Shown piece after piece: positions 2 to 40,293 of a stretch of DNA of 64,000 nucleotides. The position numbers and the translations under genes were made by a program. This DNA is from a virus. Its lineage: Duplodnaviria; Caudoviricetes. Under the pieces are notes generated by a model, which saw only the letters and a list, made by a program, of their open reading frames with translations, did not search any database and had not been told where the DNA came from. Each line of letters begins with the position of its first letter. Position 1 is the stretch's first letter. The stretch spans positions 895 to 64,894 of IMG/VR virus record IMGVR_UViG_3300037264_002561. One strand, 5' to 3'.

Positions 2-1345
2 CGCGTCAATTCGTTCCAGATCGTCGAGGCCCCCGAGAAACTCCGCTTCCGCAAGTTCGTGCAAGCGGTGGGTCAGACGGGTCGTTATGTCTGGTTCAAG
101 GAGTTCGGCGATCCTCGGATCATGGACCGGAACACCGGTCAGTTCGTCGGTGAGTATCTCTGGAACCCCGACTCCGAACAGTACGATCGGATCTTCTATA
201 CCGACTTCGCCACGAAGACCACCATCGCCGAGCAAGTCTTCCTGGCATCTCATCCGTCTTTCGTGGAAGCCACCGAGATCCTGTTCTACGCGCGTTACAA
301 CGCGATGGGCAGCCCCTATCCGGTCCCGCGGTGGTTCTCGTGCCTCACCCTGGCCCAGGGCCTCATTGCCATGGAAGAGGTCAATGCAAGTTGGTTCGAC
401 AACAACCTCATCCCACCGATTCTCTTCAAGGTCATCGACGGGAACATGAGCAAGAAGAGCGAGCGAAGCATCCGGGCGCTCTTCGAGACTCAGAAGCGTG
501 GGCGTGAGAAGGCTCATGGCTTCGTCATCATGGAGGTCAACGGCTCGTCCCAGGCCAACAACTTCACCAACACCGGCAAGCCGACGGTGGAGATCGAGAA
601 GCTCCGGGACACGATCCAGACCGATGCCACGCACTCTGGCTACGACGAAAAGGGTCGACTCAAGATGCGGGGATGCTGGAAGCTCCCCCCTTCGCACGTC
701 GGGCAGGAGAGCCAGTACACGCGCCAGAGCATCTTGGCCTCGAAAGTTGCGGCCGAGGAACAGACTTTCCGGCCCGAGGCGGTCGACTTCGACGACTGGG
801 TGAACAAGCACCTCTTCCCATCCATGCGGATCAACCATTGGTACTTCCGCACGAACCGGCCCCCGGTGGCGGACAACCTCCAGATGGCTGAAGTCCTCGA
901 GCGGCTCGGCAAGAGCGGCTTCCTTGGCGTCGGCGAGGCTCGGCCCGAGATCGAACAGATCCTCAACCGGAAGGTAGCTCCCTTCAAGGACAAGCGCCTG
1001 ACGGATACTCCGTTCCCTCTCATCCTCATCGAGACCAAGGCCGATCAGCAGAAGGGACCCCCCGAGCTGTCGAGCGAGAAGCCCGAGGAAATGATGGGAG
1101 GGCGGCCCGACAAGGAAGGGATGGCCTCGGACATCGGGGCCATCAAGATGTCTTTCCAGAAGACGTACGGGGTTAAGATCCAGGGCGTGCACAGGGCCGA
1201 TCTCGATTGGGCCGATGATCTGCTTGGCGTCGTCCTGGCCAAGAGTGGGGCCACCTTCCTCCAGGAGGGGAAGGATCTCTACTTCGTGATGGTCGACCAG
1301 ATCGGCCGGCGTCACTCCTTCATCCAATCGGCAAGGGCTTTCTGA
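2..1345 (+). CDS. Phage portal protein (PBSX/XkdE-like), 5' end outside window
   Basis: Frame is open from base 2; motifs WFKEFGDPR, SPYPVPRW, N-x-x-WFDNNLIPP and KLPPSHVG are typical of this portal family; lies upstream of protease and capsid genes. Confidence 0.85.
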   Translation, partial: RVNSFQIVEAPEKLRFRKFVQAVGQTGRYVWFKEFGDPRIMDRNTGQFVGEYLWNPDSEQYDRIFYTDFATKTTIAEQVFLASHPSFVEATEILFYARYNAMGSPYPVPRWFSCLTLAQGLIAMEEVNASWFDNNLIPPILFKVIDGNMSKKSERSIRALFETQKRGREKAHGFVIMEVNGSSQANNFTNTGKPTVEIEKLRDTIQTDATHSGYDEKGRLKMRGCWKLPPSHVGQESQYTRQSILASKVAAEEQTFRPEAVDFDDWVNKHLFPSMRINHWYFRTNRPPVADNLQMAEVLERLGKSGFLGVGEARPEIEQILNRKVAPFKDKRLTDTPFPLILIETKADQQKGPPELSSEKPEEMMGGRPDKEGMASDIGAIKMSFQKTYGVKIQGVHRADLDWADDLLGVVLAKSGATFLQEGKDLYFVMVDQIGRRHSFIQSARAF

Positions 1346-1725
1346 TGGAGCCTGTGCTGGACTTCAAGAGCCGGGTCCTCGAGTACGCGGCCACGATGTC
1401 GGACGAGGAGTACGCGCAGCTCATCATCCGCTTCGAGAAGCTCATCGTCCTCACCCGCGAGTTCTTCGATCTGATCGATCCCGTACTCACGAAGGTTGGT
1501 GTCAGGCCTTCCGGGACGCCGAGCGAGGAACTCCCTGACCCGCTCTGTGCGACCTGTGCGCGACCTTGTCCCGAGGCTTCGCCGCAAACCCAGGAGTGCA
1601 AGAAGTACTACGAGTTCATTCCTGACAAGTGCCCCACTTGCGTCTACCTGGACACGACTTGCACGCGCGTCGATCCATGTCGAGCGGGAGCTGGATACGA
1701 GCCAGCCGAAGGGGTGGCGGTCTGA
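1345..1725 (+). CDS. Hypothetical Cys-rich (putative metal-binding) protein
   Basis: TGATG overlap with portal stop; CATCARPC, CPTC, C..C clusters. Confidence 0.65.
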   Translation: MEPVLDFKSRVLEYAATMSDEEYAQLIIRFEKLIVLTREFFDLIDPVLTKVGVRPSGTPSEELPDPLCATCARPCPEASPQTQECKKYYEFIPDKCPTCVYLDTTCTRVDPCRAGAGYEPAEGVAV

Positions 1726-2476: not shown

Positions 2477-5092
2477 ATGCCAGGTTCGATTTCCGAGGTC
2501 GCCAAGAACGGAGCCGGTGAGATGGCCTTGGGCCATTGCGGCTGCGAGTGCGAAGCCTGCGAGAGCTGCTCCAACGAGATGGAGAAGGCGGCGGGCCCGA
2601 AACGCAGCGAGCTCCCCGACTCCGACTTCGCCGTCATCCGGACGGTCGACGACAAGAAGCTCCGTCAGCTACGCATCGACGACGAGTCCCACGCCCGCAA
2701 CGCGCTGGCCCGGATGAACCAAGTTCTCCCGAAGCTCTCCTCTTCCCAGACAAGCGCGGTGCGTCGCAAGATCAAGGGGCGCTACCCCAAGATCGAGGTC
2801 ACGGGGGTGGAGAAGATCGACTGGAAGACCGCCATCCCTCGCCCCCTCTACGTGCGCCGCAACCTCCTCAATGCTGGCGAGTTCATCAAGTGGGCGAAGA
2901 GCCAGGGGTTCAAGTCCACTCTTCCGGCCGAAGAGATGCACGTCACCCTCGTCTACAGCAAGACGGCCGTGGACTGGGAACAGTTCACCGAACGGACCGA
3001 CATCGTCGGTCTCTACGCGGTCACCGAGAAGAGGAAGCTCACTCCTCTCGGGAAGGACGGCGCCATCGTCCTTCAGTTCCAGAGCTCCGAGCTATCAGTC
3101 CGCCACGAAGAGTTCGGTCGTGGGGGAGCCAGTTGGGACTACCCCAGCTTCCACCCGCACGTGACGGTTTCGTACAACGCCGAGGGCTTGGATCTTTCGA
3201 CGATCCCTCCGTACGCCGGCTACCTCGAGTTCGGGCCCGAGATCTTCGACGAGATCGACGATACTTGGAAGATGCGTGCCGTGGAGAAGTTCGAGCTCGC
3301 AAACCTCCAGAGCATCGAGGTCAGCAAGAGCGAGTTCAAGGGCCGGGATGCGGCGGTCGCCTGGGCCAAGTCCCAGAAGCTCGATACCCAGCGGCTCGTT
3401 GATCTTCACGACGTCTGGATCTTCATCCAGAAGGATCATGAGGGTGGTCGGCTGAAGGAACGGGTTCTGGATACGGGTCTCGTCGCCAAGTTCGAGCTTC
3501 GCGAGGCGGTCAACAAGATCATCCCCTTCGCCAAGGTGAACGCGGAGGAGCGAACGGTCGAGGGTGTCGTCTACGAGCCTTACGTCCCTGACTCCCAGGG
3601 CGACTGGATGACCCCCGAGGACATCCAGAAGGCTGCCTGGGGCTTCCTCGAGAAGATGCGTCAGCGCCAGGTGGACACCGACCACGATGAGGTCGCCAAG
3701 GACTGTTCCCTGGTCGAGTCCTTCATCGCTCCCCCGAACCATCCTCTCTACCCGGTCGGGGCATGGGTCGCCAAGACCAAGATCAACGCCGACGCTGTCT
3801 GGGATCGGGTCCTGAAGGGTGATCTGAACGGCTACAGCATGGCCGGGCAGGGAGAGCGTCTCGTGGGGGCCTCACCCCCCAATGGTCTCTTCACGAAAGC
3901 CGACCAGCCGGCGACGGTAGAAGACGTTTTGATCTCCAAGGCGGCCACCATGCAGAGGACCCACGGGCGTCTCCGCAAGGTGGATGTGCTCTTTCTCTCC
4001 CTCGTGAAGCGTGGGGCCAACGGGCACGACTTCATGTTCAAGAAGACCGACGAAGCCGATCAGGTGACGATCTTCAAGTCCCGAGACCTTCAACTCGCTT
4101 CCGGCGAGTGCCAGATCCAGTTCGACGGCCCCCTGACTCGCTTCTGGAAGTCCCTCAAGAGCACGTTCGGGAGCAATTCTCAAGAAACCCCCGGGTCGGT
4201 CGACGCCCCGGATACCCACGGAAAGGTGGATGCAGTGAGCATCGGCAAGCAGTTCGCCGGCCTCGTGGCGATGATCGCCAAGCAGTCGGCCGACGCGCAA
4301 CAGATCATCCTGGAGATGGCCAAGACTCCGGCCGTCGGACAGGTGGTGAAGCAGACCCCGGCCTTCCAGACCTTCCTGAGCAAGGTGAATCCCGCGGAGG
4401 TGGCGAAGCTCAGCAAGTTCGCCCAGGACGTCGGCTCCCTGACCCAGCTCCCCGACAACGGCGTGATCCTGCCGGCGGCCCAGGACTTCTTCGGGTTCGT
4501 CCAGGCCCTCGACGACCCGACCAAGTGGATGGGAGGCTCCCTCCCCGGCGGTGCCGACGGGGCCAGCGGCTCCATGGGCGGCTTCGGGAAGGGTGGTCTG
4601 CCCCCGTGGCTGGAGGGCAAGGACAAGGAAAAGGACAAGGAGAAGGACGTCAAGAAGGACGAGACCCCCGCTCCGGCCAATCCCATGGCCGGCTACGAGG
4701 CGGCTCTCCAGAAGGCCCTCGGCGTCGTGGTCGAGAAGTTCACCGCCGAGCTGGCTGGTGTGAAGGCCGAGCTCGCCACCGTGGCCAAGGCCGCCGGTCA
4801 GCCCACTCCTCCCCCCGCGGGAGGCCTGAGCGCCCAGGGCGTGACCCCGGCTCCGGCCACTCCCCCCGGACCCGGAGCGTTCGCCATCTTCCAGGACTCC
4901 GATGCTGAGGAGATGGTGAAGACCGACATCGCCAAGGGCTACTCCACCCCCATGAACCCCTTCGGTGGGGTGGCCGACGCCAGTGGCATCCTCACCGGTC
5001 CTCGCGATCCCAAGCCCCAGGCCACGGGGTACAACCCGGGCCTTCACTTCGACCAAGTCCTGACCGCCCGCCAGCAGCGCGGCGGTCGCTGA
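2477..5092 (+). CDS. Multidomain prohead protease/scaffold polyprotein: DUF6582-like + Acb1-like 2H phosphodiesterase + small domain + XkdF-like serine protease + scaffold
   Basis: XkdF-like motifs GVVYEP..PDSQGDWMTPEDIQKAA, VDTDHD, LVESFIAP, GDLNGYSMAG, LSLVKRGAN; two HVT motifs at 2939 and 3158; low-complexity/coiled C-terminus; directly upstream of capsid. Start ATG 2477 (GGAG RBS) or GTG 2420. Confidence 0.85.
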   Translation: MPGSISEVAKNGAGEMALGHCGCECEACESCSNEMEKAAGPKRSELPDSDFAVIRTVDDKKLRQLRIDDESHARNALARMNQVLPKLSSSQTSAVRRKIKGRYPKIEVTGVEKIDWKTAIPRPLYVRRNLLNAGEFIKWAKSQGFKSTLPAEEMHVTLVYSKTAVDWEQFTERTDIVGLYAVTEKRKLTPLGKDGAIVLQFQSSELSVRHEEFGRGGASWDYPSFHPHVTVSYNAEGLDLSTIPPYAGYLEFGPEIFDEIDDTWKMRAVEKFELANLQSIEVSKSEFKGRDAAVAWAKSQKLDTQRLVDLHDVWIFIQKDHEGGRLKERVLDTGLVAKFELREAVNKIIPFAKVNAEERTVEGVVYEPYVPDSQGDWMTPEDIQKAAWGFLEKMRQRQVDTDHDEVAKDCSLVESFIAPPNHPLYPVGAWVAKTKINADAVWDRVLKGDLNGYSMAGQGERLVGASPPNGLFTKADQPATVEDVLISKAATMQRTHGRLRKVDVLFLSLVKRGANGHDFMFKKTDEADQVTIFKSRDLQLASGECQIQFDGPLTRFWKSLKSTFGSNSQETPGSVDAPDTHGKVDAVSIGKQFAGLVAMIAKQSADAQQIILEMAKTPAVGQVVKQTPAFQTFLSKVNPAEVAKLSKFAQDVGSLTQLPDNGVILPAAQDFFGFVQALDDPTKWMGGSLPGGADGASGSMGGFGKGGLPPWLEGKDKEKDKEKDVKKDETPAPANPMAGYEAALQKALGVVVEKFTAELAGVKAELATVAKAAGQPTPPPAGGLSAQGVTPAPATPPGPGAFAIFQDSDAEEMVKTDIAKGYSTPMNPFGGVADASGILTGPRDPKPQATGYNPGLHFDQVLTARQQRGGR

Positions 5093-5123
5093 GCAACCGC
5101 CACAGGGAAGGAATCCAGACACC

Positions 5124-6263
5124 ATGGCGAACAACCTGATGCAGCAAGTCCTGTTCGAGAAGACCGCGATCGCGGTACAGGATCTCGCCGACGGTGCCGG
5201 CTACCTGATGCCGGTTCCCGCTCGGCGGTTCCTCCGCATCGGCCTCCCGGCCACCTCCATCCTCAAGATGGCCAGGCTCCACCCGATGTCCTCGCCCGAG
5301 GAGCACCTCGACAAGTTCCGCTGGCACGTGCGGGTCCTGCGGGCCGGCACCTCGGCCACGGCCCTGTCGGAAGTCGAGAAGCCCAAGCCCCAGCTCACCA
5401 AGCGGGTCCTCCAGGCCCGGCTGGTGAAGGCGCAGATCGATCTGCCCATCGAGACCCTCGAGGACAACATCGAGAAGCAGGGGTTCATGCAGACCCTCTT
5501 CGACGGCCTGGCTCCCCGGGTGGGGCTGGACTGGGAAGAGCTCCTGGTCAACGGCGACGTGGACAACGCCGTCGACGCCTACCTGGCGCTCTTCGACGGC
5601 ATCTACAAGCAGGCGAGCTCGATCATCTACAACCACTTGGGCGGCCCCGTGTCGCTCGACCTGTGGACCAAGATGGTCAAGCTCATGCCGCCCGAGTTCC
5701 AGAGCTCCCTGTTGGGTGGGGCGAAGTTCTTCACCCCGTTCAACCTCCAGCACGACTGGCGCGCCAACCTGGCCGGTCGCGTGGGGCCCGTGGGTGACTC
5801 CAACCTCCAGACCCTCAAGGAGGTCGGGGCGTTCGGCATCCCGATCGAGCCGGTCGTCAACGTGCGCGACGACGTGAGCTACAACGGGCTGGCGAACCAC
5901 GCGGACATCCTGCTCACCAACCCCGCAGCCAACATCGTCGTGGGCCTGTACGGCGGCCTCCGCCTGTTCATGGACCTCAACGTCGAGACCGGGGTCTGGA
6001 AGATCGTGCTCCGCTTCCGCACGGACGCGAAGCTGATCGAGCAGACCGCTGCCGTCAAGGGCCGCAACGTGCTGATCGGGGCCACCTCGCAGAGGGTTGG
6101 CGGTTCCTCGACCGCCCGCCTCCTGCCGGACAACCCCGCGGCCCTCTCGGTCCTGGGCTTCACCACTCCGGAGAACGATGCCGAGGGCTTCGACGATGGG
6201 ATCACCTCCTTCGTCCCCCCGGCGAACCTCGGCATCACTGCCCCGGTCAAGTTCACCCCCTGA
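5124..6263 (+). CDS. Major capsid protein (HK97 fold, XkdG-like)
   Basis: Follows protease/scaffold; 379 aa; ETLEDNIEK, DWEELLVNGD, FDGIYKQA; strongest codon bias in window. Confidence 0.9.
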   Translation: MANNLMQQVLFEKTAIAVQDLADGAGYLMPVPARRFLRIGLPATSILKMARLHPMSSPEEHLDKFRWHVRVLRAGTSATALSEVEKPKPQLTKRVLQARLVKAQIDLPIETLEDNIEKQGFMQTLFDGLAPRVGLDWEELLVNGDVDNAVDAYLALFDGIYKQASSIIYNHLGGPVSLDLWTKMVKLMPPEFQSSLLGGAKFFTPFNLQHDWRANLAGRVGPVGDSNLQTLKEVGAFGIPIEPVVNVRDDVSYNGLANHADILLTNPAANIVVGLYGGLRLFMDLNVETGVWKIVLRFRTDAKLIEQTAAVKGRNVLIGATSQRVGGSSTARLLPDNPAALSVLGFTTPENDAEGFDDGITSFVPPANLGITAPVKFTP

Positions 6264-13008: not shown

Positions 13009-15528
13009 ATGTCGGTTTTCCAATCGCCCGAGATCAAGTTCGTCGAGAAGTTCGACGGCTCCCCGGCGTTTCCGGCGATCGACAACGACGCGACCGTCGC
13101 GATCGTCGGCATCTGCGAGAAGGGCCCCATCGGGGTCGCCACTCGCGTCACATCCTACGGCGAGTTCCGAGCCATCTTCGGCGCCTTCCTGAACGATGCC
13201 GAGATGGCCTTCTGGATCGAGCACTTCTTCACCAACAGCGGTGGACAGGGAGAGCTCTACATCGTCCGGACGGCCCACTACGCGGACATCACGGACATCA
13301 CCACCCTCGCGGCCATCAAGGCCTCGACGACCCTCCCGAACGAGGGTCCCAGCTATTCCCTTTCGGGGACGGCTCCCGTCACTGCGACGGCCGTGGGGCG
13401 CACCGACTTCCAGGTGGCGATCAGCGGGGAGGTGGCCCAGACGATCAACCTGGACTACTTGCACGCTGGCACATCCACCTCGGATGCTGCTCCCGCCACC
13501 GTCACGGGCGTCGGATCGACGGATCTCGACATCGCCCTCAGCGGAGAAGCCGCGCAGACGATTTCGATCAACAACGCCCTCGTCACCGGGGCCACGATCG
13601 CGGCGGCCATCCAGGTAGCCGTGCGAGCCCTTACCGCGGCTGTCCCGGCGAACCAGCCCGACTACGAGGCGTTCACGGCGGTCTTCGCGGGTGGCCTCTA
13701 CGTCCTGACCAACGGCACCCAGGGGGCCGGCAAGGACGTGGTCGTCACCAACGCCGGGGCCAACAACATGGCCGACGAGCTGAAGCTGGGAGTCGCCAAC
13801 GGCGGTACCGAGGATGCTGGCGAAGATGCCGTCATCAACGGCCTCGCCGTCGCGGCGGCCATCCAGGTAGCCGTACGAGCCCTTACCGCGGCCGTACCGG
13901 CGAACCAGCCGGACTACGACGCTTTCCTTTGCGTCTTCACCGAGGACGGCCGCTACCTACTCCTCAACGGCACGGTGGGTGCCGGCAAGGACGTGGTCGT
14001 CACCAACGCCATCTCCCTCAACGCCGCGGACGACTTCAAGTTGGGGGTCGCCAACGGAGGAACCGAGGACGCCTACCCGATCGACGCGGTCCTTTTCGAG
14101 GCCTACTCGGAGGGTATCCATGGGAACGCCCTCTCGACCACGACTTCGATGCAGAACAAGGTCAACACGACCTTGACGGTCGATCTCGTGGACGGGGACA
14201 CGCAAATCTCGGTTCGGCGCCCGGCCGGCATCGTTCCGGGCCAGTACCTCCAGATCACTGACCAGACCGCCCCCCTCGCCAGCGCATTCGTCTCCGAGGT
14301 CGATCGGGTCGAGGGAGACATCGTTTTCCTGCGCGACGCGGTGGTCTTGACGGAGACCGTGGAGGGGACGGGAGCGACCCCAGCCGAGGTCAAGTCCCTC
14401 GAGTTCCAGGCCACGTTCTACCTCTCCGGGAAGTTCCTGGAGAAGTTCGACTACCTCTCCATGAACCCCCGGAACACGGACGCCTACTTCGTGACCCGGA
14501 TCACCAACGAGAGCCCCAACATCGTGGCAACGGACCTGAGCGCCCCCAGCCTCCCGGACACCAGCCGCCCCGATCCCGTCACCGCCCAGATGTTCACGGG
14601 TGGAGTGGACGGGCTCGCGAGCCTCGGCGACACCGACTTCATCGGCGACGAGGTGGCTCGCAACGGGATGCAGGCCATCCGGGACCTGGAGACGATCAAC
14701 TTCCTGGTCGTCCCTGACCGGCCGACCGTGGCCGTCCACCAGGCGATGCTCGATCTCGCTGCCGAGCTGGACCGGTTCGAGGTCATCCTCGACCCCCCGC
14801 TCAGCTACGACGAGAACGACATCTCCGAGCACGTGATCGACAACCAGCTCGCCAGCGACTACGCGTCGATCTACTGGCCGAACCTCTACATGAGCGATCC
14901 GCGACGTCGCACGGATCGCCGGCTGATCGCCCCGAGCGCCTACGTCCTGGGGATGCGTTCCAAGAACGCCAACACCCCCGGGATCGGCGTCGGTCGACCG
15001 CCAGCCGGTCGTCGCTTCGTCGCCCAGGGAGTCGTGGGCCTCGAGTCGGACGCCGGCTTTCGCAAGGAGGTCCGGGACACCCTCAAGCTGGCCCGGGTCA
15101 ACCCCATCGCCGGGTTCATCGGCTCGATCGGCTTCTTCCCGTTCGGAGTCGATACTCTGCTCCCTGGGGGTACCGGGAACGGTGTGGGTGAGGTCCAGGC
15201 CCGTGCCGTGGTCCTGCGGGTCAAGCGCAATGTCCTCCGGATCGTCCGCGAGCATCTCCTCTCGGACATCGTGGACGAGGAGATCCTGTCCCGGCTGACG
15301 GGGGAGATCACCGCCTACCTGCGGGTCGAACGGGCCGAGGGAAACCTCATCGGCCGCAACGATGCCGACTCCTTCGCGGTCGACTTCAGCCTCGGCCAGA
15401 ACCCCCCGGAAGCCATGGCTCGCGGCGAGGTCAAGGGAAAGATCGCTCTGCGACTCGGCCGGGCCCTGAAGTACGTCGTCATCGAGATCTCCGAACACGT
15501 CCCGGCCAAGAACCAGTCCCCGGCCTGA
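13009..15528 (+). CDS. Contractile tail sheath protein with inserted domains
   Basis: SPEIKFVE, GICEKGPIG, FFTNSGG, FTGGVDG, ILDPP, IYWP, IAPSAYVLG, VNPI; C-terminal sheath pattern. Confidence 0.92.
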   Translation: MSVFQSPEIKFVEKFDGSPAFPAIDNDATVAIVGICEKGPIGVATRVTSYGEFRAIFGAFLNDAEMAFWIEHFFTNSGGQGELYIVRTAHYADITDITTLAAIKASTTLPNEGPSYSLSGTAPVTATAVGRTDFQVAISGEVAQTINLDYLHAGTSTSDAAPATVTGVGSTDLDIALSGEAAQTISINNALVTGATIAAAIQVAVRALTAAVPANQPDYEAFTAVFAGGLYVLTNGTQGAGKDVVVTNAGANNMADELKLGVANGGTEDAGEDAVINGLAVAAAIQVAVRALTAAVPANQPDYDAFLCVFTEDGRYLLLNGTVGAGKDVVVTNAISLNAADDFKLGVANGGTEDAYPIDAVLFEAYSEGIHGNALSTTTSMQNKVNTTLTVDLVDGDTQISVRRPAGIVPGQYLQITDQTAPLASAFVSEVDRVEGDIVFLRDAVVLTETVEGTGATPAEVKSLEFQATFYLSGKFLEKFDYLSMNPRNTDAYFVTRITNESPNIVATDLSAPSLPDTSRPDPVTAQMFTGGVDGLASLGDTDFIGDEVARNGMQAIRDLETINFLVVPDRPTVAVHQAMLDLAAELDRFEVILDPPLSYDENDISEHVIDNQLASDYASIYWPNLYMSDPRRRTDRRLIAPSAYVLGMRSKNANTPGIGVGRPPAGRRFVAQGVVGLESDAGFRKEVRDTLKLARVNPIAGFIGSIGFFPFGVDTLLPGGTGNGVGEVQARAVVLRVKRNVLRIVREHLLSDIVDEEILSRLTGEITAYLRVERAEGNLIGRNDADSFAVDFSLGQNPPEAMARGEVKGKIALRLGRALKYVVIEISEHVPAKNQSPA
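13598..14073 (+). repeat. Tandem intragenic duplication (about 252-nt period) in sheath
   Basis: tcgcggcggccatccaggtagccgt(g/a)cgagcccttaccgcggc at 13598 and 13850; peptide AAAIQVAVRALTAAVPANQPDY...GKDVVVTNA...KLGVANGGTEDA twice. Confidence 0.9.
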
Positions 15529-17439: not shown

Positions 17440-19773
17440 GTGGCGAAAGCAGGAGTGATCGACTTCGGGCTCCGCTTCCTCTACTTCACCAACGCCGCTT
17501 CCGTGACCCGGGCCCTTCAGAACGCCAACGATCAGGTAGCTGGTATAGCCGGGGGGGTTGGAAAGTCCCCCCAAGAGAAGAGACTCAACAGCCTCTCGGC
17601 CCGTATCACTGAGTCCCTCATCGGCCTCGGTATTCCTTTGGCTCTGGCCTCTGGCTTCCTTCAGGCCGCGGGAGGAGCTGCGGCGTTCGCTGAACAAGTC
17701 CAACGAGTCCAGATCGTCACGGGCCAGCTTGGAAGTGACCTGGGAACGATCTCGAGCCGCTTCATGCGGCTGGCCAACAGCACAGGGCAGTCCGCCGAAT
17801 CGATCGCTACGGTAGCCGAGATCATCGGAACGAAGGGTTTGGCAAGCCGGCTCTCTGGAGGTCAATTCGAGGATCTTCTGGGAACGACCGCCAAGTTCGC
17901 CCAACTCACCAAGCTGTCGATGACCACGGCCGGCGAACAACTCAGCGACGTGGCCGTCCAACTCCGGTTCTTCGAGAACGAGGGCCCGGACATCTTCCAT
18001 CGCTTCACGAGCGCCATCCAGGCCGTCGGTAAGGCGTCGGTGTCGGACTCGAAGCAAGTCCTCGAGTTCGTCAAGGCCTTGGCCCCTCTGCGTGTGGAAG
18101 GCAACTTCGCGCTTCACGAGATCATTGGCTTGGCCGGCGCCGTGAAGTCCTTCGGTGGTGAGATTACCAAGAGTCTCGTGCGGACCCAGTTCGGAGCCAT
18201 GTTCGGGAAGATGGCCACGAACACTGAGGAGTTCTCCAAGTTCCTAGGGATTGGTTCCTCTCAGAAGCTCACGCAGATGCTCAACGAGACGCCATTCAAG
18301 GCGATGCTCTTGTTGGCCAAGAAGCTTCAACCTCTGCGCGGGAACCTCGGCGACATGCGTAAGAAGCTCGACGAACTCGGGCTATCGGGTCAACGACTGG
18401 CTCCGTTCATGGCTGGTCTCGCTGGCCAGATCGATCTTGTCCAGAGCACCACCGAGCTGGCACGGAAGAACCTCAGTGGCCTGTCGGACGTTCTCGAAGA
18501 AGACTTCCTGACCCTCTTGGACACGGCTACGAAGCAAGCCGAGCTACTTCGGGCAAAGCTCCACAGCATCGGGCTCGTTGTTGGAGAGACCATCCTCCCG
18601 GCCCTGACAGTGGTCCTGAAGATCTTCAACCTTGTGGCTGGTGCTGTTTACGCGTTGGCCGACACGGCCGGTGGTAAGTTCCTCATCTTGGTAGGGTTCA
18701 TTGCTTCCGTCGGGACGGCGGCCATTTCGTCCTTCAATGCCATCAGTTCGATGATGGTCATGTTCGGTGGTCCTGCTCTTGGAGCAGCTCTGTGGACTGT
18801 ATTCGCCCTCTTTGGAGAGATCTTCGGCATTGCGATGCTTGTTGTAGGAGCGTTTAAGCTCATTGCGCCGATCTTCAAGAACCTCTTTGGAGCCGGGTTG
18901 TCGCTGTTGACCGAGAACATCTCACTCATCTATGAAGGCGTGACGGGGTTCCTGGAGGGGCCGATCAGTGTCTCCCTCTTCCAGAAGATCGTTGATGCCG
19001 GCCTCTTCCCGATCGTTCAGGTGATTCTGATGATGATCGACCACTGGGGCGACTTCAAGAAGGGGTTCATGGAGGGGCTTATCCTCATCACGGATGCAAG
19101 CGGACCCTTCGTGGACATGGTCAAAGACTTCTTCGAGTACCTGAATGAAATGGCCGTTTTCAAGCTCTCGATGGACGATGGAGGGAAAGCTGCCAAGGAA
19201 CTTGGCCGAACTCTCGGCCATCTCTTCTTCTTGACGGTTAGTGGGATCCTTCAGATCGGCCAAGGTCTACTGGAACTTACACGGATTCTTCTCAAGCTGG
19301 CTTATGTGGCAACCAACCCGCTCGTTCTAGCTGCCCTCGGTGCTCTCGGCGGTTTCATGATCGGTGGAGCTCCGGGGGCCGGTCTCGGAGCTATTGCCGG
19401 ACTCGTTGGGGCAGCATCAATGGGGATGCGGTGGGCTCCTATGGCTCAACCCGTTAATCGACCGGCCTTTGCCTTCAAGAATAATCAATTCGTAGGAGCG
19501 ACGACGGGGGCCGCGGCCGGTGGCGATTTGACTTCGGCTTTGCCTATGATCGGTAAAGCGTTGAGGCAAGGCTATCTAACGCCCGAAACTGGGAAACCTC
19601 TTTTGACTGCACAAGTCAGAGGCGACGTTCGACTCGACGCGGTACGCGTTGGGGAAGTCCTTTCCCATACTCAACGAAGACTCAATTTGCGACAAGGTGG
19701 AGTTGTCGATGATCTCGACACCATGGCGGCTGATCTGATGCCCGCCGATAGATCGTCGGGACGGGGATTCTAG
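17440..19773 (+). CDS. Tail tape measure protein
   Basis: 777 aa helical, TP901-like core then hydrophobic segments; AAGGAGGTG RBS. Confidence 0.88.
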   Translation: MAKAGVIDFGLRFLYFTNAASVTRALQNANDQVAGIAGGVGKSPQEKRLNSLSARITESLIGLGIPLALASGFLQAAGGAAAFAEQVQRVQIVTGQLGSDLGTISSRFMRLANSTGQSAESIATVAEIIGTKGLASRLSGGQFEDLLGTTAKFAQLTKLSMTTAGEQLSDVAVQLRFFENEGPDIFHRFTSAIQAVGKASVSDSKQVLEFVKALAPLRVEGNFALHEIIGLAGAVKSFGGEITKSLVRTQFGAMFGKMATNTEEFSKFLGIGSSQKLTQMLNETPFKAMLLLAKKLQPLRGNLGDMRKKLDELGLSGQRLAPFMAGLAGQIDLVQSTTELARKNLSGLSDVLEEDFLTLLDTATKQAELLRAKLHSIGLVVGETILPALTVVLKIFNLVAGAVYALADTAGGKFLILVGFIASVGTAAISSFNAISSMMVMFGGPALGAALWTVFALFGEIFGIAMLVVGAFKLIAPIFKNLFGAGLSLLTENISLIYEGVTGFLEGPISVSLFQKIVDAGLFPIVQVILMMIDHWGDFKKGFMEGLILITDASGPFVDMVKDFFEYLNEMAVFKLSMDDGGKAAKELGRTLGHLFFLTVSGILQIGQGLLELTRILLKLAYVATNPLVLAALGALGGFMIGGAPGAGLGAIAGLVGAASMGMRWAPMAQPVNRPAFAFKNNQFVGATTGAAAGGDLTSALPMIGKALRQGYLTPETGKPLLTAQVRGDVRLDAVRVGEVLSHTQRRLNLRQGGVVDDLDTMAADLMPADRSSGRGF

Positions 19774-24127: not shown

Positions 24128-26010
24128 TGCCTCTCGCAATCACGACGACTCCTGACGTCAAGTACACCGACAAAGAGCAGGAAGCCATCTTCCGGATGCT
24201 CGTCCAGCTCTTCAAGACCCGCCACCCGGGGGTCGTGACAGACTTCGCTAGCTCGAACGTCGTCACAGCCATCCTTGATGCCCTGGCTACGATCGGAGAC
24301 CAAACGGCGTACTACCAGGACGCCCAGGCGCGCGAGGTCTTTCCGACGACAGCCAAACTCCGTTCGAGCCTCACCAAGTACGCAGCTTCGATTGGGTACC
24401 AGCCGCGTAGCCGGGTGGCAGCAACGGCTCAGGTGCGGATCACCCTCGTGGAAGATTCGGCGTTCGACACCCTCATCCCATCGGGGTCGATCTTCTTCAC
24501 GGCAGACACCCGGCCCCTTCGCTTCCGCTCGCTCGGTGACGCCACACTCCCGGCTGGTGCTGCTGGGGACTCGATCCTCATCTACGTCGAGCATTCCGAG
24601 TCCATCCTCGAGACATTCGTGGCTGACGGCACCCCGTTCAAGCCCTACACGACTTCTCGGTTCCCCGTACTCCAATCCGGCATCGACGATCTCGGAGATC
24701 TCGCGGACGACGTGATCGCCATCACGCTCGACACCATCCCGGTCACAATCGTCCCCAACTTCGACGACAGCGAGCCTACAAGTCTCCATGCCCGTACCGA
24801 GTTCGACAACGATGGGCGCCTTATCGTCATCCCTGGAGACGGACGGACGGGGGTGGCGTTCAACGGGATCCTGGAAGTGCGCGCCCGCACAGGGGGAGGA
24901 GAGATCGGAAACGGGGCCCGCATCACCCAGGGTCCATCCCTCAGCAACAACAACGGTGATCCCGTTGCTCTCTCGTTCTCCAACAGCGTCCTCTCCTCGG
25001 GCGGTGCTGACGAAGAGTCCCTCGAAGAGATCCGCATCCAGGCCCCGCTCAGCCTCCAGTCGAACAACCGGACAGTGAGCTATCAGGACTTCATCACCAA
25101 CACCGAGAGCGTTCCCGGGATCGACCGGGCCTTGCCGTTCACTTCCAACGAGGATCCAACCGTGGAAGAGAACGCCACGGAAGTCGTCGTCCTGACGGAC
25201 AGTCCAACGAATGCTCAGCTCATTGGTGGCAATACCGCGGTCACTTCAATGACGACGGCCGTCGATGATCGCGTTCGGATCCAGGTTAATGGGGAGAGCA
25301 CGAAGACGTTCGATCTGGGCAGCCAGGTGTCTGGAGAAGACATCGCTGCTGCTCTACAGGCAGCCATTCGAGCGGAAACTCCGGACTTTCCTCTGGATAC
25401 CGCAGAGGCCTACTCGGGGTTCCTGGTCGAGTTCGATACGGTGAACCAGCGCTACATCCTCACGAATGGCTTGGCCGGTCTCCCATCAAGCATCGAAGTG
25501 GTCACTGGATCCAACGACGCGACGGCCAACATGAAGTTGACTCTCGGAACCCGGGCTTCCAATACCCTGGGGGCTTCTCCCTCGGCCGGGACGATCGCGG
25601 CCGTGCTTCAAGTCCTCACGGTCGACAAGCCGGTGATGGTGACTCATGATGTTGAAGTCTTCGGGCCGTCTATCCAACCAATCTTCGTGAAGAGCACCGT
25701 GCGTCTGGCGGCGGACGTCACAACGGCGGCAGCGAAGGTCGTCGTCCGAAACACAATCCGTACCAACGTGGCGCTCCTCTTCTCTCCTCGCCTCTCGACC
25801 GGCATCGCCAATCCCGAGATGGACTTCGGGGCCACGATCCGGTTCTCGGACGTCATCTCGATCATCAACAACACTGAGGGTGTCGAGTCGGTGGACGAGG
25901 ATCTCTTCTACCTCAATGACACCTCGGACGATGTGGTCGTAGACGTGCGCGAATTCCCCGTCTTGGTAGGAGTCGAGATCAAGGATGCCTCTACGGGCCA
26001 GGTGATCTGA
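24127..26010 (+). CDS. Baseplate J / gp6-like wedge protein
   Basis: YYQDAQARE, GGGEIGN, GGADEESLEEIR, RTVSYQDF, EGVESV. Confidence 0.88.
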   Translation: MPLAITTTPDVKYTDKEQEAIFRMLVQLFKTRHPGVVTDFASSNVVTAILDALATIGDQTAYYQDAQAREVFPTTAKLRSSLTKYAASIGYQPRSRVAATAQVRITLVEDSAFDTLIPSGSIFFTADTRPLRFRSLGDATLPAGAAGDSILIYVEHSESILETFVADGTPFKPYTTSRFPVLQSGIDDLGDLADDVIAITLDTIPVTIVPNFDDSEPTSLHARTEFDNDGRLIVIPGDGRTGVAFNGILEVRARTGGGEIGNGARITQGPSLSNNNGDPVALSFSNSVLSSGGADEESLEEIRIQAPLSLQSNNRTVSYQDFITNTESVPGIDRALPFTSNEDPTVEENATEVVVLTDSPTNAQLIGGNTAVTSMTTAVDDRVRIQVNGESTKTFDLGSQVSGEDIAAALQAAIRAETPDFPLDTAEAYSGFLVEFDTVNQRYILTNGLAGLPSSIEVVTGSNDATANMKLTLGTRASNTLGASPSAGTIAAVLQVLTVDKPVMVTHDVEVFGPSIQPIFVKSTVRLAADVTTAAAKVVVRNTIRTNVALLFSPRLSTGIANPEMDFGATIRFSDVISIINNTEGVESVDEDLFYLNDTSDDVVVDVREFPVLVGVEIKDASTGQVI

Positions 26011-28283
26011 TGAAGAAGAGGTTCTTGACGGCCAGCGGAGGAGTTGAGTTCACGGCCCTGCGCGCCGGAGAGTCCTCCGCGAACCCGATCAACTTCCTCG
26101 AAATCTTCAAGCCCGAGTTCCTCGAAGACGACCTTGAAATCCGTTTCCTGCCTGGCATCTACGAATGGCCAGAACTCTGGGATCTGACTTCCAACGAGAA
26201 CATCAACGTCTACTGCGAAGGAAAGGTCTTCCTGAAGGATGTCGAGGGTGTCCTCGAACCGGCCATCCGAGTGGGTGGCTCCAAGAAGACGATCACCGGC
26301 ATCCGCTTCCGGAACTGCAAGCAGCCCATTGAGGTCGCCGATGGGGCCGAGAAGATCCTCATCGCCAACTGCATCGACTACCACCATATCGATCTCGTCG
26401 TGACGGGAGGCCAGAGCTTCACGGCCAAGGCCGTTACGAGCTGCGTCTTTCGGAACCTCACCTGTCGCCGCGACGGGAAGGGCATCAGTGTTCTCAAGAA
26501 CACTGAGGTCTACAACTGCCTTCAGGTCGGGATTGACGAGATCGCTCGCCCAGGGTTCTTCGGAGAGATGCTCGACGCCTACGACTCGAAGCTCGGGTGG
26601 TTCAGCGGTATCCAAACGATGCCCTTCGTGGTCAACCAGTTGGCGTCTGACTACTTGGAGGGATCGAACCTCCTGGTCTTCAAGCTCTCCAACTCGACAG
26701 GAGTGACCGCCCGGCCACGGATCCGCAAGATCGTCTCGTACGACCTCAGCCGTGGAGACCTCGTCAAACTAGCGTTCCGGCTCATCAGCACGAACCTCTT
26801 GGTAGCGGGGGCTGACTCCTACCGCTTCTACTTCGGTTCTGGCCCGGGTGACTATCATCGGTTCGACTTGGCCGACACCGACGTAGCAGCCGGCCTTAAT
26901 GTGCTCTCGTTCGATCTGACGGCCCCAACGGCTACCGTCGGAGTCCCCGTCCTCGGGAGCGCCGAGTACTTCTTGCTCGAGGTCAACCTTCAGGATGGCG
27001 GATCGATCGAGTTCGGGCTCGACCATCTCTATCTGGCTGACAGCTCCCTCGTGATGAATTTCAACGCGGCCGAAACGGTCGATGGAGTGGACGTCTACGC
27101 GTTCTTCAAGGGGGCCAACGGATACGACTCCAGCGCTCTCGAACCTCCTTTCGAGTCACCTCTTTTCGAGCGCCTCAACTACGCTCCTACCAAGGCCAAT
27201 TTCGAGACCTACATGAGCGGAGGCCTGGAAGGCTTCCCGATCGGAGGAATGTTCCAGGGCGGTCACATCGTCCTGAGCGATGAGCCGGGCCACCTTCGGT
27301 TCACGAATCATCCCACCCTCGGAACCTGGACGAACGACGAGGAGTTCTACGATACCGATTCGGACCAGCCGGGAGTCGATGGAGAGGGCTTGGCGGCCCC
27401 CATCGATGAGACGGGAGCTATCTTCGCTGCCCTCAATGGCGAAGTGGTTAACCTTGCGGTGGCCAACGGAGCTGGAGAGATCCGGGATACGGATGACAGC
27501 CAGTCGACGAAGTTCGACAAGAACGCGGGGGCTGCTACCGTCAACGGGATTCGTACGACTCTCGCCGCGGCTTTCAACCTATCAGCCATCGGAGCAATCG
27601 GGGTCGGCGTCGAGTACTACATTGCCCCAGGGGATATGACCAAGGTCACGGCCAATGGACTCGACATCATCATCAATTCGGCCGGCGGAAGTCTGACTGG
27701 GCGGGTCCTCAAGACCGAACTTCAAGAAGGATGGAACCGATCCGAGGTTCTCTTGGCCGATCCCTTCGCGAGTGCTGGAGTTTTCGATGCTACGGCGATG
27801 ACTTTCGTGGATGCTTCCCTCAACGTCAATGCCGCGGACGCAATGGTCGGACACATGGTCGACCACATCTACGCAATCCTCGTATCCGGGTCCTCGACGG
27901 CTCCAATCACGTTCGACTCTCTCGGCCGCGCCTTCATCGATCTGGGCCTCTACCCCGAAGCTCGCGTAGCTCGTGTTGTGTCTGAACCCTTCTTTGTACG
28001 CGCCGGAGCTTTGGTCACGGCCATTCGATCGGCCTTGGGAGCAATCGAAGACGTAGCGAATGGGGCTTACGTCAATCGTACCGCCGTCCAGCGGATCCTA
28101 TCCTCTCGGACCTGGGAGGTTCGGTGGGCGGATGGGAAGTACTCCCGCTACGGAATCCTCGTGGGAGCTCTGGCTAAGCCCTACACTCCGATCAGCCGCC
28201 TGTCTTCTCTCAAGATCGAGTCGGGAGAAGTCTGGGCCCAGGTTCGTTGCTACATCCGCAACCGCAGCGAAGGCATTCCCTAG
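26010..28283 (+). CDS. Large baseplate-associated protein with two putative carbohydrate-binding-like modules
   Basis: TGATG overlap with baseplate J; two related beta-rich modules ending FGLDHLY and HMVDHIY. Confidence 0.65.
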   Translation: MKKRFLTASGGVEFTALRAGESSANPINFLEIFKPEFLEDDLEIRFLPGIYEWPELWDLTSNENINVYCEGKVFLKDVEGVLEPAIRVGGSKKTITGIRFRNCKQPIEVADGAEKILIANCIDYHHIDLVVTGGQSFTAKAVTSCVFRNLTCRRDGKGISVLKNTEVYNCLQVGIDEIARPGFFGEMLDAYDSKLGWFSGIQTMPFVVNQLASDYLEGSNLLVFKLSNSTGVTARPRIRKIVSYDLSRGDLVKLAFRLISTNLLVAGADSYRFYFGSGPGDYHRFDLADTDVAAGLNVLSFDLTAPTATVGVPVLGSAEYFLLEVNLQDGGSIEFGLDHLYLADSSLVMNFNAAETVDGVDVYAFFKGANGYDSSALEPPFESPLFERLNYAPTKANFETYMSGGLEGFPIGGMFQGGHIVLSDEPGHLRFTNHPTLGTWTNDEEFYDTDSDQPGVDGEGLAAPIDETGAIFAALNGEVVNLAVANGAGEIRDTDDSQSTKFDKNAGAATVNGIRTTLAAAFNLSAIGAIGVGVEYYIAPGDMTKVTANGLDIIINSAGGSLTGRVLKTELQEGWNRSEVLLADPFASAGVFDATAMTFVDASLNVNAADAMVGHMVDHIYAILVSGSSTAPITFDSLGRAFIDLGLYPEARVARVVSEPFFVRAGALVTAIRSALGAIEDVANGAYVNRTAVQRILSSRTWEVRWADGKYSRYGILVGALAKPYTPISRLSSLKIESGEVWAQVRCYIRNRSEGIP

Positions 28284-37159: not shown

Positions 37160-37284
37160 CCGCGGTTGGCCTGATCGTCCTCGGTGTAGTGGCGGTACTG
37201 TTTCTGGCTTCCTACATCGACCAAGATGACGAAATGGAACGGACGGAAGTTCCGCCGCTGAGTCGGAGGAAGAAGGACCGATGA
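37153..37284 (+). CDS. Small membrane peptide (43 aa)
   Basis: MVTAVGLIVLGVVAVLFLA; overlaps both neighbours. Confidence 0.5.
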   Translation: MVTAVGLIVLGVVAVLFLASYIDQDDEMERTEVPPLSRRKKDR

Positions 37285-39743: not shown

Positions 39744-40243
39744 AGATCCTCCTGGCACTGTGTCTGGCTTGCGCCTCTTGGGCCGATGGTCAATACGCGG
39801 TTTATGGCGAGGTCTGCCACACAGGTGACATCGCCGATACCGCTTTCGTCGGGATCGCCACCTACCCGAGCCTGACGAGCGTGGCGAGTGCCGCTCAACT
39901 CAACTGTGGGCTCTCCATCGGTGCTCCCTTCGTCACCACCTCAACCGGATCCATCACCATTGGAGCTCTCGGTGGAGGTTTGTACAAAGTCGTCGCTGTC
40001 TGTTCTTTCTCTGGAACGACCAACGCCACCTACCACATGGTCGTGACCAAAGGGGGGTCGAACGCGATGATCGAAGGTGAACGGAAATTCGCCACGGGAA
40101 CAGACACCAATGGTCTTACGGCCCAGGGTCTTCTTCGTCTCGTGAGCACCGACGTTCTCACCTTGGCGTTCGGGGCTGATGCTCCGGCCAAGGACGTCAC
40201 GATCAACCACATGCGATTGGTAGTCCAGAGGATTGCCCCATGA
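39728..40243 (+). CDS. Exported beta-sandwich (C1q/BclA-like) protein
   Basis: GGAAGGTG RBS + GTG; MQSVLKILLALCLACASWA-DG; GLYKV...GLLRL...D.L pattern. Confidence 0.65.
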   Translation: MQSVLKILLALCLACASWADGQYAVYGEVCHTGDIADTAFVGIATYPSLTSVASAAQLNCGLSIGAPFVTTSTGSITIGALGGGLYKVVAVCSFSGTTNATYHMVVTKGGSNAMIEGERKFATGTDTNGLTAQGLLRLVSTDVLTLAFGADAPAKDVTINHMRLVVQRIAP

Positions 40244-40293
40244 TCGGCAACCCCACTTCTTTCAACAGATCCCATGTCCACAAGGAGGACATT

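Follow-up and report, generated by a model that had tools for sequence, protein, structure and literature searches.

A phage head-maturation polyprotein with an Acb1 cassette between putative protease cleavage sites

RESULTS

Layout of the locus

The window is the whole 64,000-nt stretch of viral DNA analyzed here, and the gene under study is ORF 2477-5092, which encodes the polyprotein P0001 and has a portal gene on one side and an XkdG-type major capsid gene on the other (Table 1). In order, P0001 comprises a leader, a DUF6582-like module, Acb1, an orphan alpha/beta module (here referred to as the third module), an XkdF (Peptidase_S78_2) protease, and a scaffold. The start codon, ATG, is preceded by GGAGA 9 nt upstream and, in alignment, coincides with the point at which the homologues begin; an alternative GTG start is present at 2420. 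The span 2477-5162 given in an earlier note on this DNA is correct, with the ATG at 2477, the stop at 5092, and position 5162 being the final base of capsid codon 13. Using the capsid protein as a tblastn query, we recovered annotated XkdG proteins and major capsid proteins. According to the definition in the accessible text of Iyer et al. (2017; PMC5512222), P0001 is a polyvalent protein, combining Acb1, an XkdF peptidase, and two further modules in one chain among head genes. Altogether, the best explanation is that a tailed phage of the PBSX/XkdG type encodes its head-maturation functions here in a single polyprotein gene. The full-length AF2 model of P0001 is poor (pLDDT 45.8) and usable for linker positions only; Acb1 is unfolded in this model because the alignment is empty over Acb1.

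TABLE 1 Features of the locus, with positions in the window (a slash follows the Lys of a putative cleavage site)
Feature	Position	Strand	Evidence and remarks
Portal protein	2..1345	+	Truncated by window start; phrog_12 E 3e-14; Phage_portal sub-threshold
Head-maturation protease-scaffold polyprotein gene (P0001)	2477..5092	+	871 aa; ORF list, translation, Pfam, PHROG
Leader, residues 1-37, Cys cluster (HCGCECEACESC), ends EMEK/A	2477..2587	+	Low pLDDT residues 1-46
DUF6582-like module, residues 38-113, ends GVEK/I	2588..2815	+	phrog_16160 E 9e-4
Acb1 2H phosphodiesterase cassette, residues 114-271, ends AVEK/F	2816..3289	+	PF23474 E 3e-37
Orphan alpha/beta (third) module, residues 272-347, beta-alpha-beta4, ends AVNK/I	3290..3517	+	AF2 pLDDT 82.9
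XkdF-type serine protease (Peptidase_S78_2), residues 348-474, ends LFTK/A	3518..3898	+	PF14550 E 2e-24
Scaffold region, residues 475-871	3899..5089	+	Secondary structure, pLDDT, motif counts
Major capsid protein, XkdG/phrog_1623 family	5124..6263	+	phrog_1623 E 1e-56
Putative capsid leader MANNLMQQVLFEK, predicted cut after K13	5124..5162	+	K13 conservation

Modules of P0001

The Acb1-like domain proposed previously is confirmed by Pfam (PF23474, 127.8 bits vs a cut-off of 27, residues 123-265). Both HxT motifs are intact, i.e., MHVTLVYS and PHVTVSY align with HTTIVYS and PHITLSY of the solved Acb1 7t26 and also align with the Pam3 portal 8hds. Compared with P0003, P0005, and P0112, all of which lack it, Acb1 is inserted in P0001; in P0004, it is in a different place. 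Putative cleavage motif sites lie at both of its edges, and two further motif Lys (K138 and K193) lie within it. The polyprotein copies end ...WKMRAVEK (P0001) and ...WKDKLVEK (P0004), while in a portal-borne copy of equal similarity the final residues, which are also the protein C-terminus, are ...WELGVTER. An intragenic move, with the two polyprotein copies as closest kin, was rejected based on 52% mutual identity vs 53% to the portal copy. Among the non-XkdF matches to Acb1, 75/92 carry a DUF1073 portal domain; further fusion partners are a Mu-type portal, MuF, and a DUF2213 protease, and the database protein P0053 joins DUF2213, NUDIX, and Acb1. In four relatives (L018, L038, L070, and L074), a D12 methylase (Dam) occupies the same N-terminal slot. 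Thus, homologues swap modules, as the earlier note had suggested checking, with Acb1 absent, relocated, or the methylase in the slot, and, judged from these alignments, Acb1 behaves as a swappable cassette.

The protease matches PF14550 with 86.6 bits (cut-off 24, residues 351-461) and phrog_3017 at E 1e-35, and its candidate catalytic residues H403, D404, and S454 are invariant in six homologues. Using hhalign, the PaMx31 protease was matched with 98.5% probability; a scan of viral contigs returned just five distant protease relatives. The scaffold combines long helices with disordered stretches rich in Gly, Pro, and Lys; an FLSLVKRGANG strand within it and its C-terminus are conserved. A search for an internal start of a nested scaffold gene near residue 491 gave no clear ribosome-binding site.

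The DUF6582-like module is predicted to form a beta-hairpin and two helices (pLDDT 54-78). The earlier designation of this module is weakly suggested by sub-threshold PF20223 matches in the homologues P0003 and L006 (18.2 and 17.2 bits, cut-off 27.3), and not by P0001 itself, in which Pfam gave no DUF6582 match at E≤0.1. A purpose-built HMM matches five loci (L006, L018, L070, L033, and L073), and in the protein atlas the module resembles stand-alone viral proteins of 75-78 aa (score 0.90-0.91) and a cluster with DUF6582 in 24% of its members (score 0.90). It recurs between cargo and protease.

For the third module, Foldseek found no PDB match at E≤0.001, and in a wide VIA-align search the best Z was 3.9, with DUF54, ACT-like, and protease pro-domain folds at Z 3.1-3.9, which is not significant. 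BFVD yielded matches with a TMq of 0.65-0.72, among them a 460-aa protein of phage SM1; the protein atlas lead scores 0.81 only. An HMM of the module matches L006, L010, L005, and L074. A library-wide search returned five proteins at E≤0.001, of which three, including P0001, are of the same polyprotein family; the other two (cadherin-like and TPR repeat proteins) were judged spurious. The module lies directly N-terminal of the protease in 6/6 close relatives, recurs in other XkdF protease genes and, based on fold and a weak HMM match, is present in the scaffold of SM1/PaMx31-type phages, which is encoded by a gene of its own; hhalign did not detect it in the PaMx31 scaffold, matching the FLSLVKxGAN segment only, and weakly. 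Because it is constant beside the protease and recurs in protease/scaffold genes, the third module looks like assembly machinery.

The hydrophobic-x-Lys motif

P0001 contains 39 [VILMF]-x-K sites among its 68 Lys. The earlier note had listed 13 of these (K37, K113, K271, K347, K474, K488, K602, K616, K746, K754, K771, K815, and K820) together with LFEK/T in the capsid protein, and all 14 exist. The position −2 of Lys is hydrophobic in 0.57 of cases vs a background of 0.25 (binomial p=1.6e-8). By comparison, in the 56 other window genes, which were roughly called, 237/840 Lys (0.28) are in the motif, the same as their own hydrophobic background (0.28), so that the motif is commoner in P0001 than in the other genes of the window (Fisher OR 3.4, p=1.75e-6). 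At position −2 of the other residues analyzed in P0001, the hydrophobic fraction is 0.24 (R), 0.19 (E), 0.25 (D), and 0.29 (Q), and position +2 of Lys is hydrophobic in only 0.10; this limitation to Lys and to position −2 argues against a simple amphipathic-helix effect. Around the motif, P3 is enriched in I (3.1x), L (2.2x), and V (2.0x) and P1' in S (2.3x), while Pro and Glu are depleted at P1'. The motif Lys are unevenly distributed, with 6/7 Lys in the protease and 22/33 in the scaffold vs 11/28 in the N-terminal modules; the cargo is spared.

The motif share is also high in the homologues P0003 (0.58), P0004 (0.56), and P0005 (0.53), and in 45 pooled protease/scaffold ORFs of the wider family it is 0.38 vs a background of 0.22 (n=1418 Lys). 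The bias is not family-wide, with 7/25 (0.28) in the PaMx31 scaffold and 0.24-0.29 in L025, L084, and L040. Across five homologues, motif Lys are more conserved than other Lys (mean 2.13 vs 0.72), and in the scaffold the conserved sites are K488, K523, K534, K602, K616, K647, and K771. Four strongly conserved motif Lys (K284, K353, K385, and K433) are inside folded domains, and their conservation may be structural.

The motif was also claimed to mark module boundaries, and we found it at edges that were set independently: the Acb1 insertion is bounded by GVEK/ and AVEK/ at indel junctions of the homologue alignment, and the third module has AF2-predicted disordered ends at residues 266-271 and 346-350. 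The low-pLDDT linkers 111-137, 343-347, and 469-494 contain K113, K347, K474, and K488. K37 at the end of the leader is matched in one of the two homologues aligned at that point, and the junction of the third module and the protease is not motif-conserved (K338 and K347 each matched in 1/5 homologues). In distant polyproteins with unrelated linkers, the motif is likewise present at junctions. VEK precedes the methylase WGSPAGK motif in 11/12 occurrences, which are not independent because VEK is within a conserved block.

In the capsid protein, K13 is invariant in 13/13 homologues and is K in 92/93 relatives, with the consensus [IL][LI][EQ]K/AD; of the 68 distinct site sequences, 66 have a hydrophobic P3 residue and 65 have Ala at P1'. 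We suggest that the capsid leader is probably cut after K13; the entire capsid N-terminal segment is conserved, and K13 could therefore be structural. The capsid profile matched no PDB sequence at E≤0.01 and, hence, there is no solved relative showing the mature N-terminus. The mature part of the capsid protein has 10/17 Lys in the motif. In HK97, residues 100-107 of the capsid protein are TFNK/SLGS, within which we take K103/S104 to be the maturation cleavage site; here, motif Lys account for 6/13 in the delta domain and 5/10 in the mature domain. Because the HK97 site F-N-K/S has the same shape, hydrophobic-x-Lys is probably the cleavage code of the XkdF-type protease in P0001. In the literature searched, we found no paper on the cleavage specificity of XkdF/PF14550 proteases and no experiments on cleavage, virions, or injection for any protease of the XkdF family.

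DISCUSSION

We infer that the protease cuts at the motif, that the modules it frees stay in the head, and that Acb1 is injected. According to this model, which we consider somewhat better than evenly balanced, the scaffold part would bring the whole chain into the procapsid, where the XkdF protease would cut after Lys wherever P3 is V/I/L/F and P1' is small (S/A/T). This cutting would remove the 13-residue capsid leader and shred the scaffold and the protease itself to peptides that exit the shell, while the compact N-terminal modules would be freed, with Acb1 (~18 kDa) trapped in the head and entering the next host with the DNA. In the new host, Acb1 would hydrolyze CBASS cyclic-nucleotide signals ahead of any phage gene expression.

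Several known systems have parts of this arrangement. In T4, the internal proteins and Alt, which act in counter-defense or host takeover, are brought into the procapsid, remain in the head, and are then injected; each is encoded by a separate gene and has a short targeting peptide, and the prohead protease gp21 trims this cargo at a hydrophobic-x-charged site, L/I-x-E. The likeness to P0001 is the proposed head-protease trimming at hydrophobic-x-charged sites, which here is predicted from the sequence; the differences are that the P0001 cargo, Acb1, is covalently in the protease-scaffold chain, that P1 is Lys, and that the protease is XkdF. HK97 gp4/gp5 is similar in the site F-N-K/S, in the motif Lys of the delta domain, and in a scaffold that is destroyed by the protease, as predicted for P0001, and the Pfam name places XkdF beside family S78; however, HK97 has its scaffold fused to the capsid protein, and its protease is separate, small, and without cargo. 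Lambda C/Nu3, P2 gpO, and Mu gpI/Z are protease-scaffold fusion genes. Like these and T1/Bas13, P0001 has protease and scaffold in one frame in the portal-capsid gap; the proteases in lambda, P2, Mu, and T1 are of families other than XkdF (DUF2213 in T1), and the accessible parts of the literature searched describe no N-terminal enzyme cassettes in these fusions. Proteins annotated as "DNA methyltransferase/prohead protease" (Rhizobium phage RHph_TM16, phrog_1530) resemble P0001 in having an enzyme on the N-terminal side of an XkdF protease, with a Dam methylase instead of Acb1 as the cargo; a literature search for methylase-protease fusions, DUF6582, and XkdG gave no paper on these fusions. 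Finally, portal-Acb1 and MuF-2H fusions have the same Acb1/2H domain on a head protein, and a prediction exists that the 2H domain reaches the host along with the DNA and degrades defense nucleotides (Iyer et al. 2017, PMC5512222, the accessible text of which has 0 occurrences of XkdF). These copies are C-terminal and without a built-in head protease, whereas in P0001 Acb1 lies within the chain, with a putative cleavage site on either side. P0001 would be a new variation on the known theme of protease-released capsid cargo.

Alternatively, the motif could be the protease site while the N-terminal modules work solely in the producing cell and Acb1, after maturation, is lost or degraded and not delivered; its fusion to a late structural gene would then ensure that Acb1 is made with the late proteins that trigger CBASS. 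In line with this, structural proteins, including a T1-like protease-scaffold fusion, determine type I CBASS activation according to the accessible part of a preprint (bioRxiv 10.1101/2023.05.21.541620), late head proteins of many kinds, mostly DUF1073 portals, carry a fused Acb1, and Acb1 has internal motif Lys. However, T1 has a DUF2213 protease, so that the link to the CBASS trigger is an analogy only, and we rejected the idea that T1/Bas13-type CBASS-triggering proteases are of the XkdF family. Moreover, the fusion partners all end inside or at the head and are not late proteins generally, the motif is at the C-terminal edge of Acb1 in both polyprotein versions and not in the portal version, and the internal motif density is far lower in the N-terminal modules than in the scaffold. 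We consider it rather unlikely that Acb1 functions in the producing cell only. Still less probable, in our view, is that the motif is no cleavage signal but a structural or compositional trait of the scaffold lineage, with the true sites, if any, elsewhere; one example would be packing in register against the acidic interior of the capsid. The absence of the bias from the PaMx31 scaffold and other family members, the conserved motif Lys buried in folded domains, and the motif frequencies in the mature capsid parts of this phage and HK97 all fit such a trait. Against it, the bias is one-sided and restricted to Lys, the P1' residue is small with Pro and Glu depleted, and the motif marks indel-defined module edges and matches the HK97 capsid site.

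The signature of the Lys motif, its presence at module edges, and the swapping of modules all agree with the interpretation in the earlier note; its proposal of three independent cargo proteins, two of them uncharacterized anti-defense candidates, is not supported. It is true that all three N-terminal modules are in the variable slot that is filled by Acb1 or Dam methylase in relatives, that the DUF6582-like module resembles stand-alone phage proteins, and that one L074 ORF contains both a 2H phosphoesterase and a segment like the third module. However, the third module is constant beside the protease, is found in cargo-less protease/scaffold genes (L010, L005, and the PaMx31 scaffold), and gave no defense-related fold or family in PDB, VIA-align, or BFVD, and the DUF6582-like module is a recurrent fixture between cargo and protease. 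We therefore consider it very improbable that all three are counter-defense cargo; the DUF6582-like module and the third module more probably serve in assembly, e.g., as a targeting element or a protease pro-domain.

More tentatively, and with rather less confidence than we have in Acb1 delivery, we speculate that the N-terminus of XkdF protease-scaffold genes may be a general evolvable cargo slot, in which any folded module bounded by hydrophobic-x-Lys sites would be taken into the procapsid by the scaffold, cut free by the protease, and delivered pre-made along with the genome. The modules in such a slot would be Acb1, other 2H enzymes, Dam methylase, and His-rich and DUF6582-like domains.

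If Acb1 is delivered as proposed, anti-CBASS activity would arrive with the DNA without waiting for gene expression, and the phage could blunt cyclic-nucleotide immunity at a different, earlier time. The putative cleavage rule, V/I/L/F-x-K followed by S/A/T, is testable for a widespread and uncharacterized prohead protease family and predicts mature capsid N-termini in hundreds of phages, and this reading would account for annotated proteins that repeatedly join a protease with a methylase or with Acb1. Trypsin, too, cleaves after Lys, so that routine mass spectrometry of virions would overlook such processing; in practice, workers in the field should be aware that processing with Lys at P1 is hidden from tryptic virion proteomics. 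If the N-terminal slot is indeed general, a whole phage lineage would ship counter-defense enzymes in its heads, and proteins of choice could be loaded into phage heads by following a simple rule.

Results

The polyprotein lies in a PBSX-type head module

The window appears to span the greater part of a phage genome; the polyprotein's own cluster is on a contig of 64,894 bp. Known families cover this phage very poorly, and five of its large ORFs (455-839 aa) had no Pfam family at E<=0.001 (Table). ATG 2477 of the polyprotein ORF has GGAGA 9 nt upstream, lines up with the N-termini of homologues in the alignment and gives a product, P0001, of 871 aa. Pfam assigns P0001 an Acb1 domain, an anti-CBASS 2H phosphodiesterase (PF23474, residues 123-265, E 3e-37), and an XkdF prohead protease (PF14550, residues 351-461, E 2e-24); the PHROGs match to head maturation protease (E 1e-35) agrees with Pfam. 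The capsid protein matches annotated XkdG and major capsid proteins from phages of Streptomyces, Vibrio, Pseudomonas (PaMx31/SM1) and Clostridium, among others. These matches identify the region as a PBSX-type head module. As a separate observation, where the leader of P0001 has its Cys cluster, the homologue P0003 carries an acidic stretch rich in Cys and Glu.

Table. Positions of features in the window and in two related loci; the slash marks a putative cut
Feature	Position	Strand	Remarks
Portal gene	ends at 1345	+	truncated by window start; small ORFs follow
126-aa ORF	1345-1725	+	between portal and protease genes; Cys-rich C-terminal half CATCARPC...CPTCVYLDTTC; no family match
Polyprotein ORF	2420/2477-5092	+	downstream of portal gene and small ORFs
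Cys cluster in polyprotein leader	2534-2569		residues 20-31; HCGCECEACESC
xK/FEL pentapeptide pattern	3284-3298, 3485-3499		AVEK/FEL and LVAK/FEL, at both ends of the third module
Capsid gene	5124-6263	+	follows polyprotein ORF; phrog_1623, E 1e-56
Five large ORFs	13009-15528, 17440-19773, 26010-28283, 40240-41607 (+), 61037-63412 (-)		
Gene for 820-aa protein	37281-39743	+	no Pfam match
597-aa ORF	L074 1809-3599	+	immediately upstream of a double-methylase-protease-scaffold polyprotein
PaMx31 XkdF protease	L087 2439-3041		separate gene; product ends in a His-rich stretch

Hydrophobic residues are enriched two positions before Lys in the polyprotein

The polyprotein has 68 Lys, of which 39 carry a hydrophobic residue at -2 and thus form the candidate cleavage motif [VILMF]-x-K; the sites listed in the earlier note were all present and make up 13 of these 39. 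In the 56 other window genes, roughly called, the frequency (237/840 Lys, 0.28) equals their own hydrophobic content. The comparison with non-head proteins that the note had proposed as a refutation did not refute the motif, which is more frequent in the polyprotein (Fisher OR 3.4, p=1.75e-6). The bias is specific to Lys, given that hydrophobic residues at -2 of R, E, D and Q have frequencies of 0.24, 0.19, 0.25 and 0.29, and it is one-sided (0.10 at +2 of K). The scaffold (22/33 Lys) and the protease (6/7) show it most strongly, the N-terminal modules (11/28) less so. Elsewhere in the window, an 820-aa protein has the motif at 10/16 Lys (p=0.004 before correction for about 41 genes); this protein could be a further substrate of the head protease, or the excess could be chance.

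The motif recurs at module edges that are definable without it

Module edges can be defined without reference to the motif. The alignment shows Acb1 as inserted in comparison with P0003, with ...EVTGVEK/IDW...[Acb1]...MRAVEK/FELANLQS in P0001 versus ...EVTGLEK/SDRGSLEVVQS in P0003. In P0004, another homologue, Acb1 is located after the protease and has the tail ...WKDKLVEK/SLT. These two Acb1 copies are no more similar to one another (52% identity) than to a portal-borne copy (53%); because the latter forms the C-terminus of its protein and ends in ...WELGVTER, the VEK tail is found only on internal Acb1. The third module, predicted alone, has a confident fold (pLDDT 82.9, pTM 0.69) with disordered ends at residues 266-271 and 346-350 that contain K271 and K347, while K338 lies within its last strand. 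The full-length model was poor; its linkers of low confidence (111-137, 343-347 and 469-494) contain K113, K347, K474 and K488. The xK/FEL repeat around the third module is not conserved among homologues, and its LVAK/FEL copy lies within the last predicted strand.

Distant polyproteins with unrelated linkers likewise have the motif at junctions: LDK/AQWS and IEK/DQWS precede the DUF6582-like module, (P)F-x-K/ marks the N-terminus of the protease, and directly downstream of the protease there are one to three sites. Of 12 methylase modules, 11 have a VEK ahead of the methylase motif; these occurrences are not independent because VEK is part of a conserved block.

The motif is conserved in close relatives and in the capsid leader

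Among billions of proteins, only four near-full-length relatives were found (P0003, P0004, P0005 and P0112), and metagenomic locus L006 supplies a fifth. The frequency of hydrophobic residues at -2 of Lys is 0.58, 0.56 and 0.53 in P0003, P0004 and P0005. Across the six close sequences, the residues over-represented at P3 are I (3.1x), L (2.2x), V (2.0x) and F (1.85x); those at P1' are S (2.3x), A and T, with Pro and Glu depleted there. Motif Lys of P0001 are retained in a mean of 2.13 of five homologues versus 0.72 for non-motif Lys.

In the capsid protein, K13 is invariant in 13/13 homologues, and in a set of 93 sequences that includes 80 metagenomic relatives it is K in 92 and R in the other. 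The 68 distinct site sequences have V/I/L/M/F at P3 in 66 cases and Ala at P1' in 65 (consensus N-R-[ST]-[IL]-[LI]-[EQ]-K/A-D-L); because the entire segment is conserved, conservation alone fits a structural N-arm as well as a cleavage site.

The slot N-terminal to the protease varies in content

Homologues swap modules, a point that the earlier note had proposed to check, and what occupies the slot ahead of the XkdF protease differs between relatives. It holds Acb1 in P0001; a D12 Dam methylase in loci L018, L038, L070 and L074 (doubled in L074); a His-rich domain in P0003, P0005 and P0112; the DUF6582-like module in P0001, P0003, P0004, L006, L018 and L070; and the third module. A custom HMM also found the DUF6582-like module in ORFs of L033 and L073, in which no protease domain was found. 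Among cultured phages, Rhizobium phage RHph_TM16 has an XkdF fusion with the annotation 'DNA methyltransferase/prohead protease'. The His-rich domain, at the N-termini of its three proteins, has repeated HxH motifs (GxHxH...HDHG...HVHR) and is possibly metal-binding; the stretch that ends the PaMx31 protease is similar. The 597-aa ORF of L074 combines a LigT/2H phosphoesterase domain (E 1e-17; also matched weakly by Acb1) with a third-module-like segment and is a second route for a 2H enzyme into an XkdF head module.

The third module is immediately N-terminal of the protease in 6/6 close relatives. It had no PDB match in Foldseek at E<=0.001, nor was its top VIA hit (Z 3.9) significant; in a viral structure library it matched unnamed phage proteins (TMq 0.65-0.72), among them one of 460 aa from Pseudomonas phage SM1. 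The SM1 relative PaMx31 encodes a 200-aa XkdF protease, then a protein of the same 460-aa length, by position a scaffold, and then the capsid protein. A third-module HMM matched further protease genes (L010, L005) and, weakly, the PaMx31 460-aa protein (E 0.27). Because it is constant beside the protease and recurs in other protease/scaffold genes, the third module appears to belong to the assembly machinery; our guess is a pro-domain or an element that binds the capsid or portal. The DUF6582-like module is recurrent between cargo and protease and resembles stand-alone phage proteins of 75-78 aa, but falls below the Pfam DUF6582 threshold, so that its label holds only as a resemblance. Both modules had been proposed as anti-defence candidates; we found nothing that links either to defence.

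Discussion

The -2/+2 asymmetry is not expected of an amphipathic-helix pattern, and we regard a non-proteolytic origin of the bias as improbable. Pooled over 45 protease/scaffold ORFs upstream of related capsid genes (n=1418 Lys), the frequency is 0.38 and the background 0.22, with no such bias at -2 of R and E; the bias is not family-wide, with 7/25 in the PaMx31 scaffold and 0.24-0.30 in several loci. HK97 is the best outside anchor for reading the motif as a cleavage signal: its capsid protein (...GAKTFNK/SLGSDAD) is cut after K103 during maturation, at a hydrophobic-x-Lys followed by Ser, and 6 of 13 Lys in its delta domain are in the motif. The L/I-x-E rule of T4 gp21 has the same shape but a different P1.

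The main rival to release of Acb1 as head cargo keeps the same cleavage code but has Acb1 act solely at a late stage in the cell that makes the phage, in time with the structural proteins that trigger CBASS; we consider this rather unlikely. The CBASS-relevant protease of T1 belongs to a family other than XkdF, and the link to it is therefore an analogy only. Head proteins that are released by proteolysis and injected are already known, namely, the T4 IPs and Alt and P1 Dar. Acb1 is mainly portal-borne: 75 of 92 non-XkdF matches carry a DUF1073 portal domain, and others carry Mu-type portal, MuF or ADP-ribosyltransferase domains, the last on portal or MuF proteins in P0018 and P0054. A single case among the 92, P0053, joins Acb1 to a T1-type DUF2213 protease and NUDIX. 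In the solved Pam3 portal (8hds), an Acb1-type domain occupies residues 466-615. Portal and MuF proteins fused to 2H domains were already described in 2017, with delivery and degradation of defence nucleotides predicted (PMC5512222); that paper does not mention XkdF. Within the part of the literature searched, no paper was found on an Acb1 cassette within an XkdF protease-scaffold polyprotein, on a Lys-specific motif for the XkdF protease family or on the wider cargo-slot pattern. Altogether, we favor, with moderate confidence, self-processing of the polyprotein, in which the XkdF protease would cut its own chain at hydrophobic-x-Lys sites and Acb1, as a fragment of about 18 kDa comprising residues 114-271, would be freed as head cargo.
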